A program made the position numbers and the translations under genes. From a virus: a stretch of DNA of 64,000 nt. The stretch covers positions 8,238 to 72,237 of the IMG/VR virus record IMGVR_UViG_3300028024_000006. One strand, 5' to 3'. The notes beneath the pieces are model-generated. The model was not told where the DNA came from. It worked only from the letters and a program-made list of their open reading frames with translations, and did not search any database. This document shows positions 9,866 to 30,826 of this stretch, one piece after another; the first letter of the stretch is position 1, and the number at the start of each line of letters is the position of its first letter.

Positions 9866-9895
9866 TTGCGCACTCATTCGTGAGCGCATACTATT
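9866..9895 (+). promoter_or_regulatory. Early sigma70 promoter/operator copy 1 (TTGCGC-17-TACTAT containing GTGAGCGCATACTATT)
   Basis: Near-consensus -35/-10, exact 16-mer repeated 4 times, heads a + strand operon. Confidence 0.8.
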
Positions 9896-9929
9896 CATGT
9901 CAAGGCGATATCAACAACGGGGTAATGAC

Positions 9930-10298
9930 ATGGCAACCGCAAAAGCAGTGATCGACGCAATGACTATCGAGGGCAGTCTCGACTACTCGAATGCAAAGTT
10001 GCTCACACCCACCGAGCTTGAACAGTCCATCAAGTTCAAGGAACGCGGTTTCAAGGTCATGATCGCTATCCGGCTTGATGCCGGTATCGAGGGCGACCAG
10101 GAGCGTTGCTACAGCGATGCAATTGTTGGCGCAATCCAGATCACGCAGGCCGATGCGCTTGACTTTGCACGCCGCGCCCTGAGCGACACCCTCGTTGCGA
10201 AGGGCGCGCGCTTCCGCTGCTACGTGACCACGGGCAAGGGTTACGACCGCAAGACCATGACGGATTTCGTCCGGCGCACGCTCTGGATTTCGCAGTAA
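9930..10298 (+). CDS. Hypothetical early protein
   Basis: First ORF after promoter; protein-like composition. Confidence 0.65.
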   Translation: MATAKAVIDAMTIEGSLDYSNAKLLTPTELEQSIKFKERGFKVMIAIRLDAGIEGDQERCYSDAIVGAIQITQADALDFARRALSDTLVAKGARFRCYVTTGKGYDRKTMTDFVRRTLWISQ

Positions 10299-10344
10299 CA
10301 ACCGCGCCCGCTTCGGCGGGCAATCATGATGGAATGAGGAAACC

Positions 10345-10680
10345 ATGCCAGAAAGATTCATCGGCTATAAACGCCTGACGTTCAAGTACAGCGAGGGCTA
10401 TAAGCATCTGGACCGCAGCGAATACCTTGGCACGTTCAAGGTGTTAGGCGGTGAGCGGCTACGCTGGAGTGACGATGGTGAGTCGCGTGATCGCAGGCTT
10501 ACCGTGGTCGCGCCGCGTGGCGTTGCCCCGCGTGATGCCGTCGCAGCAATCGAAGACGCCATGAGCTACGGATGCCAGTGCGAGCACGACTGTTGCGGTC
10601 ACTGGCAATCGCGGGCGCGGGCACGCAGGACGAAGGGCCGTGATTACGCAGTCGAAATTCACGAGTATCCGAACGTATGA
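10345..10680 (+). CDS. Hypothetical protein with CxCxxDCCGH motif
   Basis: GAGG RBS; Cys cluster. Confidence 0.65.
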   Translation: MPERFIGYKRLTFKYSEGYKHLDRSEYLGTFKVLGGERLRWSDDGESRDRRLTVVAPRGVAPRDAVAAIEDAMSYGCQCEHDCCGHWQSRARARRTKGRDYAVEIHEYPNV

Positions 10681-10718
10681 CCATCGCCCGCGCAGGCGGG
10701 CACTTAAGCGAGGAAACC

Positions 10719-11060
10719 ATGAAACTGAAAATCAGCAAAAAGATGCAATCGATCATCATGCCGGGCGAGCAGGACGGTGCGCCCTATGCTGGCCTGTCAG
10801 GTTGCGACACGATCCGCGATACCCTGCGCACCGCGTGGGCCGCTGGCGGGCTCGCGAAAGACGGCTCGACCGTGATTGAAGTCACCGAGGCCGAGGCGCA
10901 TATCCTCACCGAGCACGGCAAGCTGGCTATCGCCGAGTGCGAACTGAAGCTCGCCGAGTGCCAGACCGACGAGGAAAAGAAGCCGTTTTTCGGGCGTAAT
11001 TCGGCGTGGTCCGCGCTTCTACGGAGCATCGAAAAAGAGCGCGCGCCGCTGGCCGCTTGA
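10719..11060 (+). CDS. Hypothetical protein
   Basis: GAGG RBS before ATG 10719. Confidence 0.6.
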   Translation: MKLKISKKMQSIIMPGEQDGAPYAGLSGCDTIRDTLRTAWAAGGLAKDGSTVIEVTEAEAHILTEHGKLAIAECELKLAECQTDEEKKPFFGRNSAWSALLRSIEKERAPLAA

Positions 11061-11066
11061 AGGGAC

Positions 11067-11096
11067 TTGCACAATAATTCGTGAGCGCATACTATT
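11067..11096 (+). promoter_or_regulatory. Early promoter/operator copy 2 (TTGCAC-17-TACTAT)
   Basis: Exact 16-mer at 11081-11096. Confidence 0.8.
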
Positions 11097-11101
11097 GAGT
11101 C

Positions 11102-28458: not shown

Positions 28459-29384
28459 GCGCGAAACTGCAACTGACCGCACAAGACATTATCGAATCCT
28501 GCGAGGTTCACGGCTTTCCCTTGGATCCAGACCAACTGGACGTAGTGGCCGCTGTTGTCAACCAGGTGCTGCTATCTGCAAGCAAGCCTGCCGCGCCCGA
28601 TGGGTGGAAGCTGGTGCCGGTTGAGCCGGTCAGCGGCATGGCGGGGGCTGGTGGGCTTCTGCCGCGTGGCGAGCGGCTCTTTTCATCGCCATCCAACGAT
28701 GCAGATCGAGTCGAGGTGATCGGCTTCGCCAAAGCGTGCGAAGTGTGGAGAGCCATGCTCGCCGCATCCCCTGCCGCGCCAGCGCAATCGGTGGAACTGG
28801 TTGGCATCGCTATGACGGATGAAGACGTATTCGCGCTGCAAGACACCCTGAAGACTCTTGAGCTAATTGCCAAGGGCGAAACATACAGCAAGGATCACGA
28901 CTTGGACGGGGCGATGCAGAAAGCCACGATCAGGCATGCGATGCAGCATGCCAGCTACGTTCTCAAGCGGTTCAAGCCCGCGTATTTCCGCCTAACCGAC
29001 GCCTTTCACGGACGGTCGCGCGCACCGCAGCCCTCTCCGACTGCCGTGGTGCAGGACGATGAGCGGGCGGCGTTTGATGAATGGTGCAATAGCATCCCGG
29101 CCAATCGATCAATGGGGCCGTGGGAGATTTGGCAAGCCGCCCGCGCCGCATCCCCACAACCAGTCGCGCAACCAGTGGAGCAGACTGCGCGCACGTACAC
29201 CACGAAAGCGGGGGAGGCCGTCGCGGGTATCGCGCTGCGTCAGTGCGGCAACGAAAAGGAATGGCGGCACATCCTCGCGTGCAATCCGCAATTCGCAGAC
29301 CTGTTGCCGAGCGACTATTTTCCAGTCGGCACGGTATTGACATTGCCACCCGTTGCTGCGGTTGAGCGCTTGCTGAAGAATTGA
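28455..29384 (+). CDS. Mosaic early protein (Ead/Ea22-type segments) with C-terminal LysM domain
   Basis: PDGWKLVPVEP; TYTTKAGEAVAGIALRQCG..WRHILACNP..PVGTVLTLP. Confidence 0.7.
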   Translation: MSAKLQLTAQDIIESCEVHGFPLDPDQLDVVAAVVNQVLLSASKPAAPDGWKLVPVEPVSGMAGAGGLLPRGERLFSSPSNDADRVEVIGFAKACEVWRAMLAASPAAPAQSVELVGIAMTDEDVFALQDTLKTLELIAKGETYSKDHDLDGAMQKATIRHAMQHASYVLKRFKPAYFRLTDAFHGRSRAPQPSPTAVVQDDERAAFDEWCNSIPANRSMGPWEIWQAARAASPQPVAQPVEQTARTYTTKAGEAVAGIALRQCGNEKEWRHILACNPQFADLLPSDYFPVGTVLTLPPVAAVERLLKN

Positions 29385-30187
29385 ACGCCATGAATGACAC
29401 TCAAGAAGCCTATTTCCCAATGACCGGTCTGGCCCGCGATGCGCTGATTGCATCATTCAACCGCGCGCACGAGCACGGCGACATTCCGGTTCTCTTTCCC
29501 GCCGACCCGGACCCGCGCCCGTCCACTCACGAGGTCACGCAGACCACGCACAACCGGGCGGCGCGCGTGATCGAGCGTTGCGGCTACCACGTCACCGGTT
29601 ACGTGTTGACCGACAAATGGGGTATGCGCAAGGCCATCGTGGAAGAGGGCGACGTCCGCTGGCTTCCGAACGTTTCCGACTTCACGCGCGTCATGAAGTG
29701 GCAGGACGTCAAAGGCCCGAATACGCCGCCCGATGAAGCGATTGGGGACGACCTGTTGACAGGCACGCCGCAGGCCGTCACCGCCCCGCCCGTAGCGCTC
29801 GCTGCGCCCGCGCCGTCGCGCCCGGTCCTGACCGCGCCGCCGTCGGCCCGCTTGCTCGAATCGACCGAAGAGGCGTTAGGTGCGCTCGCGCGCGAGCTTG
29901 GGTGTGCGTGGAACGACGTGATCCCGCATAACGCGGGTTGGTTCGTGCCCGGCAAGCCCACGGCCTACGCGAGCGCGCTCGACGCCATCAAGGGGCTATT
30001 CGCGAGCTTGAGCAACGGCGGCACCGTGTACACGCCCAAGCAGGACGTGAAAATCGAAGGCGAAACAGTGAATGTGCTCGACGTCGAGGCGATAGAACGG
30101 ATTGCGGTAAGCGTGGGCATTACCGTCGAGCGGAAACGAAAGCCCGTACCGGAGCCGGAAACGGTCCCGCAATTGGGTCTGTTCTAA
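29381..30187 (+). CDS. Hypothetical protein ending in clamp-binding-like QLGLF
   Basis: C-terminus PETVPQLGLF. Confidence 0.65.
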   Translation: MNAMNDTQEAYFPMTGLARDALIASFNRAHEHGDIPVLFPADPDPRPSTHEVTQTTHNRAARVIERCGYHVTGYVLTDKWGMRKAIVEEGDVRWLPNVSDFTRVMKWQDVKGPNTPPDEAIGDDLLTGTPQAVTAPPVALAAPAPSRPVLTAPPSARLLESTEEALGALARELGCAWNDVIPHNAGWFVPGKPTAYASALDAIKGLFASLSNGGTVYTPKQDVKIEGETVNVLDVEAIERIAVSVGITVERKRKPVPEPETVPQLGLF

Positions 30188-30202
30188 GATACAGTTTTCC
30201 CA

Positions 30203-30469
30203 ATGGAAGGAGGCGTGATGGACGAAGACGACGACGGCCCGTTCGCGGCGAGAATCGGCGAGCACTCGAACTGGACGATTGAGGCGACACCCGCAAAGAT
30301 CGGCGGCACATGGCGGGCGAACGCCATCGCGACGCGCGAGCCGACCGAAGACGGAGACGACATGGGCGACCGTTTCGAGTTTCACGACCTTGGCGAGTTC
30401 GATACGCAGGTCGAAGCGGCAAACCGCGCGGTGCGCTGGGTCACGCACTGGATCGAGATTAACTTCTAA
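30203..30469 (+). CDS. Small acidic hypothetical protein
   Basis: Last gene before terminator. Confidence 0.6.
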   Translation: MEGGVMDEDDDGPFAARIGEHSNWTIEATPAKIGGTWRANAIATREPTEDGDDMGDRFEFHDLGEFDTQVEAANRAVRWVTHWIEINF

Positions 30470-30474
30470 AGGGA

Positions 30475-30509
30475 AAGAGCCCCGCGAGGCTGAAGTCTGC
30501 GGGGCTCTT
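30475..30509. terminator. Bidirectional intrinsic terminator candidate
   Basis: AAGAGCCCCGC...GCGGGGCTCTT. Confidence 0.75.
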
Positions 30510-30725
30510 GTGGGGTGATCGACGTTCGCCATCCGTTAGGATTCCTACGCGATTTTACATAATAAAAGTTATCCACCAATTTGCCGCACGGCCTGAAAGC
30601 CGCGCCAGCAAAGGAATTGAGGGGTGCGCGAATCCGGCTATCGGGGAATGCACTAGGCAATCAGGCACCGGGTAAATGCCTGCCCCGACTTCGCGCTGCG
30701 GTGTGAGCCATCCATGTTGCGAACC

Positions 30726-30767
30726 ACTTTAACGGCAGTTTCTCGCGCGGCCCGCGTGCGTTTTCCG
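30726..30767 (-). promoter_or_regulatory. Putative late promoter variant (CGGAAAA-N29-TAAAGT)
   Basis: Same spacing; no convincing CDS downstream. Confidence 0.55.
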
Positions 30768-30796
30768 ATCTGAATACAGGGAGACCAATATTTCGC

Positions 30797-30826
30797 TTGC
30801 GCTCTCAATCGTGAGCGCATACTATT
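30797..30826 (+). promoter_or_regulatory. Early promoter/operator copy 4 (TTGCGC-17-TACTAT)
   Basis: Exact 16-mer at 30811-30826. Confidence 0.8.

Follow-up and report, generated by a model that had tools for sequence, protein, structure and literature searches.

The window analysed here, 64,000 nucleotides (nt) of viral DNA at positions 8,238 to 72,237 of the IMG/VR record IMGVR_UViG_3300028024_000006, contains dispersed copies of one 16-mer, GTGAGCGCATACTATT, which appears to form the proximal spacer and the −10 hexamer of sigma-70-type promoters. Coordinates refer to the window unless stated otherwise; the source record, a virus genome of 94,463 bp rated complete, is called G000. There are five such putative promoters in G000, each of which would head an operon of mostly small accessory genes. 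We propose that the functional core of the 16-mer is a 9-bp box, GTGAGCGCA, located at −21 to −13 and abutting the −10 hexamer, and that it serves as operator for a dimer of a 73-residue ribbon-helix-helix (RHH) protein encoded behind one of these promoters. Such a protein would damp the box operons including its own. We favour this autoregulatory reading tentatively and give it a little under an even chance.

Four exact copies of GTGAGCGCATACTATT are present in the window, at 9880-9895, 11081-11096, 25778-25793 and 30811-30826, all on the plus strand, and no further match was found there even when three mismatches were allowed. Shuffled sequence contained a mean of 0.22 matches, and four were reached in 0 of 100 shuffles. 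The four sites, their −35 hexamers and their 17-bp spacing are exactly as given in an earlier note on this DNA, and the near identity of the first and fourth copies over about 35 nt, also claimed there, is confirmed. The count of four has to be raised to five, since a search of the whole genome yielded another exact copy on the minus strand at genome positions 5468-5483, 2.7 kb left of the window. All five copies share one frame, in which a TTG-type hexamer (TTGCGC, TTGCAC or TTTACT) is followed after 17 bp by TACTAT, and each precedes a run of co-oriented, mostly small genes. Promoter c1 (9866-9895, plus strand) consists of TTGCGC at 9866-9871, the 9-mer at 9880-9888 and TACTAT at 9889-9894, and is followed by small genes from about 9930 to 11060; box promoters occupy the same place in G001, a 98-kb relative that aligns over half of the genome at about 72% nucleotide identity, and in other relatives. 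Promoter c2 (11067-11096, plus strand; −35 TTGCAC, box 11081-11089, −10 11090-11095) heads the operon that includes a DUF6011 gene and the RHH gene. Promoter c3 (25764-25793, plus strand; −35 TTTACT, box 25778-25786, −10 25787-25792) precedes an operon at 25827-30469 and has no counterpart at the matching position in G001. Promoter c4 (30797-30826, plus strand; −35 TTGCGC, box 30811-30819, −10 30820-30825) is followed by a long small-gene operon at about 30856-37157, and its orthologue in G001 lies at 16458-16473.

We regard these elements as promoters because of the fixed TTG/17 bp/TAnnnT geometry, the position in front of co-oriented operons, and the orthologous box promoters of five relatives (G008, G013, G015, G016 and G017), which match the sigma-70 consensus at 9-11 of 12 positions. 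Two further sequence features occur close to them. The palindrome TGAGGCTCA, or a sequence close to it, directly follows the −10 hexamer in many copies (9896-9905, 25794-25802 and 30827-30835) and in many box promoters of G001, G007 and G011; it is identical in phages with GCGC-type and CAAC-type box centres and thus does not covary with the box. It may be a hairpin of the 5′ leader or a second site. The motif GTTTTCC (GGAAAAC on the reverse strand) is found at 9845-9853 and at about 30760-30770, 25-40 nt upstream of the −35 hexamers of c1 and c4.

The box is a property of a whole phage family. Between 2 and 9 box promoters are present in each of thirteen related genomes of P1-like phages or plasmids, of which the plasmid pBVIE05 (G012) is one. 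In G001 there are four exact copies of GTGAGCGCATACTATT and one with a single mismatch, and four of them stand at orthologous sites with diverged flanks on both sides. When ten family genomes were assembled and the 9-mers directly 5′ of TAnnnT were counted, the box was the most frequent 9-mer in 10/10 genomes, with 3-7 copies per genome, always within a −35/17-18 bp/−10 frame. Its sequence is GTGAGCGCA in G000, G001, G012 and G013, GTGAGCGCG in G017, ATGAGCGCA in G008, G015 and G016, and GTGACAACA, a variant without dyad symmetry, in G007 and G011. Four further records fit this pattern; in one, a slightly variable box (GTG[AC][GT]CGCA) is found in nine promoters. While the 9-mer is constant within a genome, the −10 hexamer differs among the copies in most genomes (TACAAT, TACAGT, TACACT, TATAAT and others), as is also true of the −35 hexamer and the distal spacer. 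The invariant unit across the family is the 9-mer plus the following TA, about 9-11 bp, and identity over the full 16-mer is a special case of G000 and G001. Hence the idea that the conserved 16-mer is a protein site survives for a shorter unit than the one originally proposed. The accompanying argument, that conserved spacer bases imply a protein site, is strengthened: because the box is constant per genome, has been switched lineage-wide in all promoters at once, and is surrounded by drifting neighbours, the sequence comparison points to a site for a trans-acting factor encoded by the lineage rather than to duplicated promoters or gene conversion.

The box extended by its flank, WTYGTGAGCGCATACNAT, was found in only 2 of 401 sampled Burkholderiaceae genomes, both of them Caballeronia, and in both on mobile elements, which makes a host regulon unlikely. 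A scan of metagenomes added a single short contig with the box, and a full-text literature search for the motif returned only unrelated primer sequences. As to the surroundings of the box, a conserved leader palindrome, GCGGCGCACNGTGCGCGGC, follows several box promoters at a distance of 15-35 nt in G008, G013, G015, G016 and G017, and only in this clade. The sequence flanking the box in G017 shows strong dyad symmetry, at one site with arms of 16 bp.

To find a candidate for the factor, the genes following box promoters were listed in all genomes. The protein which we favour is encoded at 13218-13439 (plus strand) in the c2 operon, has 73 residues and is RHH-like; homologues were detected with a hidden Markov model (HMM) downstream of a c2-type promoter in 14/14 family phages with enough sequence. 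In the family alignment, a basic helix is followed by 45 conserved C-terminal residues with a strand-helix-helix pattern. The AlphaFold2 (AF2) monomer model agrees with this topology, with an extended segment at residues 30-36, helices at 38-48 and 51-72, and a mean predicted local distance difference test (pLDDT) value of 79.7. The predicted homodimer scored 0.63, compared with 0.00 for the best of three controls; the partner pLDDT was at least 79, and the runs agreed in at least 98% of contacts. Among proteins of solved structure, 20 of 30 one-chain pairs and 1 of 23 single chains attained this homodimer mark. The model is RHH-like in that antiparallel strands pair about T33 (contacts 33-33, 31-35 and 32-34) and the second helices pack together. 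We take it as a likeness to solved RHH dimers only, possibly a memory of them, and not as independent proof. On the strand QRVTAWL, residues R31, T33 and W35 presumably face the DNA, as judged from the alternation in CopG and Arc. Arg31 is invariant in 11/11 phages with a GCGC-type box centre despite overall identities of 26-53%, and in 3/3 phages with the GTGACAACA box it is replaced by Leu or His, a His being found at 31 or 33. This covariation of positions 31/33 with the box centre is suggestive, as indirect evidence, of binding through the ribbon. Among the candidates named in the earlier note, the RHH-like protein is therefore the one that operon position, covariation and structure models favour.

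From the observed promoter sequences, their family-wide pattern and the position of the gene, we infer the RHH protein to be the binder and to act as a repressor, and the resulting loop to damp rather than silence. According to this proposal, the GCGC centre would be recognised by the two-stranded beta-ribbon with R31, T33 and W35. Positions −21 to −13 lie between the hexamers and within the polymerase footprint, so that a dimer sitting there would compete with RNA polymerase; owing to this overlap, repression is the natural reading. With the RHH gene located behind c2, and c1 reading into it, a negative autoregulatory loop would arise and keep expression of the box operons fixed at a moderate level while the prophage persists as a plasmid. 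Since the regulator would be made from its own box promoter, we think of a self-limiting loop and not of an off switch. The circuit is likely separate from the CI/Cro immunity switch, a claim of the earlier note that the sequence comparison supports. No box is present in the immunity region of G000, the recognition helix of CI does not track the box type, and the 12-mer of pR/pL, which has three copies in G000, occurs in G001 only once and outside the immunity region of that genome.

Four RNA sequencing runs of a single study on a carrier of pBVIE05 bear on the prophage state. Of the four box promoters of pBVIE05, three (c0-, c1- and c2-type) have operons covered by contigs 100% identical to the plasmid, the RHH gene Bcep1808_7763 included. 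The contigs agree with expression in the carrier state; being assembled, they give no transcription starts, strand or level. Next to no RNA-library cover was found over the DarB/DarA-type stretch of pBVIE05 (L144, about 2,700-13,300), and the uncovered part is no evidence.

The exact 16-mer together with flanking bases (ATTC or AATT before, GA after) occurs once in each of two Caballeronia genomes, beside a P4-type integrase gene. In G005 (L092, contig C154:4000-16000) the box lies at 6657-6672 on the minus strand, in G004 (L093, C122:236000-250000) at 5157-5172 on the plus strand. In one island the order is transfer-messenger RNA (tmRNA), int, box, alpA, a C4/CI-type antisense RNA, a replication initiator, a DnaB-type helicase and an Ant-like protein. 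In the other, an outward-pointing box is placed between int and a tRNA-Thr fragment, and alpA and an int-alpA RNA are found on the opposite side of int. No protein common to the islands and the phages was found by blastp, and no RHH homologue was found in the islands by HMM at E ≤ 1. Since an identity of 22 bp has been placed independently twice, selection probably acts on the site itself. In Gram-negative phage-inducible chromosomal islands (PICIs), alpA is induced by a helper phage through an unidentified factor (PMC6092414). We speculate that the box could be a shared regulatory word, and that P4/PICI-like islands read the RHH regulator of a helper to time their own induction. Although we consider this doubtful, it would provide a concrete mechanism for the control of alpA in Gram-negative satellites by helper phages.

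The genome of one island, G005, also contains a box in a hipBA promoter (contig C324, about 61,280-61,330), which reads TTGCAC-ggattatt-GTGAGCGCA-TACAAT and lies inside a 24-bp near-palindrome, ATTATTGTGAGCGCATACAATAAT. The HipB protein has no special likeness to the XRE protein of the phages. This box may be a chance match or a related operator; we estimate that about one chance match is to be expected in the scan of 401 genomes.

Several observations weigh against an RHH repressor acting at the box. The covariation is only suggestive because the three GTGACAACA phages form one clade and represent one evolutionary event, and inside this clade the strand differs (RLLHTW versus RHLNMW) at an identical box. 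Searches with the 73-residue protein gave no match to an RHH family in Pfam, where only a weak match to DUF7511 appeared, nor to an RHH protein among PDB sequences when a profile was used; when the monomer model was compared with known folds, the best Z score was 3.8 and no RHH protein was among the matches listed. Only a single box is evident per promoter, while RHH repressors usually need at least two subsites. The box promoters of G000 match only 7-8 of the 12 sigma-70 consensus positions and none was called by a promoter scanner; the promoter assignment made in the earlier note is carried by geometry, operon position and the stronger orthologues. In G000, G001 and G012 the −35 hexamer is poor (3-4 of 6 positions), which keeps positive control in play. 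The RNA contigs may stem from carried-over DNA and come from a relative only. Finally, a pure repressor does not readily explain the island copies, which have no good −35 hexamer and reside in islands without an RHH homologue.

Two other regulators of the phages were considered as binders of the box and rejected. The CI-type repressor (HTH_3 and peptidase S24; 59258-59971, plus strand), which lies opposite a Cro-like gene and represents the lambdoid immunity, is present in all family genomes, and its QPTIS helix is conserved throughout, also in phages of the GTGACAACA clade. The XRE-family protein of 264 residues (51760-52554, minus strand), which occupies a Q-like position before the terminase genes and is likewise universal, had been put forward as a candidate, but its recognition helix does not track the box either: G012 shares the SL helix of G007 and G011 but has the GCGC-type box GTGAGCGCA, and the helices of G017 and G008 are identical though their boxes differ. 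A LacI-type operator was also considered, as c3 and its flank are identical at 17 of 20 positions to the symmetric lac operator. This was dropped as a coincidence because GTGACAACA lacks both the central CG and the dyad, and because there is no LacI-family protein among the proteins scanned.

A different phage protein could occupy the box, either an unannotated small protein or the DUF6011 zinc-ribbon protein of 188 residues (11102-11668, plus strand). The latter is universal in the family and is the first gene after c2. A box promoter stands directly upstream of it in 14/14 relatives with upstream sequence, it is the sole gene directly behind a box promoter in every genome, and its C-terminal ribbon is rich in Cys. 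Its model is well folded (pLDDT 82), but no structural match, DNA-binding fold or relative was found, and the Atlas gave DUF6011 clusters only. The GTGACAACA clade is set apart by no clear change other than an insertion of 4 residues, and more distant DUF6011 loci have neither the box nor an RHH gene. We consider binding by this or another such protein improbable. The earlier note offered the operators of P1 C1 as an analogy; read in this way, a lysogeny repressor encoded elsewhere in the genome would silence early lytic operons in the prophage. This is attractive in view of the P1-like virion genes, the scattered asymmetric operators overlapping promoters in P1, and the make-up of the operons, whose numerous small genes evolve fast in a way common for early takeover genes. 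However, a six-frame search of the genome with P1 C1 returned nothing at E ≤ 10, which alone shows little, and a search of the genome with P1 Lpa found nothing. ATTGCTCTAATAAATTT, the C1 operator consensus, has no match in the genome at up to 4 mismatches. Moreover, CI and XRE helices do not follow the box type, the RNA contigs of the pBVIE05 carrier cover three box operons, and the gene of the favoured regulator itself belongs to an operon headed by a box promoter. The weakest part of the earlier reading is a silencing of early promoters in the manner of C1, which we think quite unlikely.

Positive control is the converse case, in which the box would be a promoter-specificity element for a phage activator or sigma-like factor and the promoters would be weak alone. 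The poor −35 hexamers of G000, G001 and G012 fit such a role, as do the two island copies, which keep box and −10 hexamer without a usable −35, and the induction of PICI alpA by a helper phage through an unknown factor (PMC6092414). On the other hand, the box lies between the hexamers, where a bound protein normally blocks polymerase. The same box stands in promoters of five relatives that match 9-11 of 12 positions and should need no activator, and the proteins scanned included none recognisable as an activator or a sigma-like factor. On balance we regard activation through the box as unlikely. There might, finally, be no dedicated binder at all if a promoter cassette had spread by duplication or gene conversion, or if the box were a site for a host factor. 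Both the likeness of copies 1 and 4 and the presence of the same box on unrelated mobile elements of the likely host genus, Caballeronia, could be understood in this way. It would leave unexplained that only 9-11 bp are conserved, with spacer, −35 and −10 drifting around them in genomes of 26-80% protein identity, that the whole set switched jointly to GTGACAACA in one clade, and that 399 of 401 sampled genomes of the host family lack the extended box. This reading is, in our judgement, as improbable as the DUF6011 one.

The family to which G000 belongs is one of P1-like phage-plasmids of Burkholderiaceae. This assignment follows from the likeness of virion genes, from the lambdoid CI/nin gene set and from a circular plasmid relative. 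The baseplate protein of G000 resembles BplA of P1 and proteins of P1-like phages, and a protein of 1446 residues matches Dar-type and virion-protein families. Genes of the nin type (RusA, HNH, DUF1367) follow the immunity region, and then comes the XRE protein before the terminase genes. The plasmid relative is pBVIE05 (CP000621.1), 88 kb in size, of Burkholderia vietnamiensis G4, which is annotated as non-mobilizable and encodes mostly hypothetical proteins; it carries terminase, baseplate and Dar-type genes, CI and four box promoters, and would serve as a cultured, sequenced model of the family. No close relatives of G000 were found by megablast in phage and plasmid collections, and an Rfam scan of the whole genome gave no match.

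Some neighbouring genes deserve mention. The DUF1367 gene (52555-53007, minus strand), located between the HNH/endonuclease VII and XRE genes and missed by a simple ranking of open reading frames, is present in all family genomes but G007 and G011, the two complete genomes with the GTGACAACA box. Its product was rejected as binder, as it gives no indication of DNA binding, and its absence from these two genomes was treated as mosaicism of the nin region. Left of the window, a BrnT/BrnA toxin-antitoxin pair (genome positions 5569-6121) is situated back to back with the fifth box promoter. In pBVIE05 the same pair (DUF497 and its neighbour) is found at the matching place, under the deepest RNA-library contigs there.

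Dispersed operators within promoters are already known from P1, RK2 and pSM19035. If our proposal is right, the box circuit would add a new case, in which a small RHH protein sets the level of a set of accessory operons beside a lambdoid switch in uncharacterised phage-plasmids of Burkholderiaceae. The family would also offer a natural specificity swap, with a GCGC centre accompanied by Arg31 and a CAAC centre without it, and the box on satellite-like islands would be a lead on how satellites listen to their helpers. On the plasmids RK2/RP4, KorA has a palindromic operator at the −10 of seven promoters, and omega of pSM19035 is an RHH protein whose operators are arrays of heptads. As in these systems, identical short operators stand in dispersed sigma-70 promoters with the regulator behind one of them, which would lead to autoregulation and to a set level of expression in the carrier; one operator in five promoters, and an RHH gene behind a c2-type promoter in G000 and 13 other family phages, is the arrangement of the KorA/omega type. 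In contrast to them, the carrier here is a P1-like phage-plasmid, each promoter has one asymmetric 9-bp box, there is no sequence relationship, and binding is predicted. In the immI region of phage P22, the RHH repressors Arc and Mnt, which bind as tetramers, control Pant and Pmnt at one locus through dyad operators of 17-21 bp. They would share with the protein proposed here the small size and RHH fold, an operator over −10 and spacer, and the role of a second circuit beside CI-type immunity. Unlike Arc and Mnt, the present protein would act at five or more dispersed promoters with a single short box each. The stoperators of mycobacteriophage L5 are bound by the immunity repressor gp71 and lie mostly within transcribed DNA. 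They too are many short asymmetric sites of one orientation relative to transcription in a temperate phage, whereas all sites described here are inside promoters and the immunity repressor is not implicated. C1 of P1 has dispersed asymmetric operators of 17 bp that overlap promoters (annotation of NC_005856). P1 resembles our phage in type and genome size, and asymmetric, oriented operators overlapping scattered promoters were found in both, whereas here immunity is of the lambdoid CI/Cro kind, the favoured regulator is an RHH protein of 73 residues in its own regulon, and the operons appear in the RNA libraries of a carrier. Judged by these analogies, the design of the box circuit would resemble those of KorA, omega and Arc/Mnt more than that of P1 C1.

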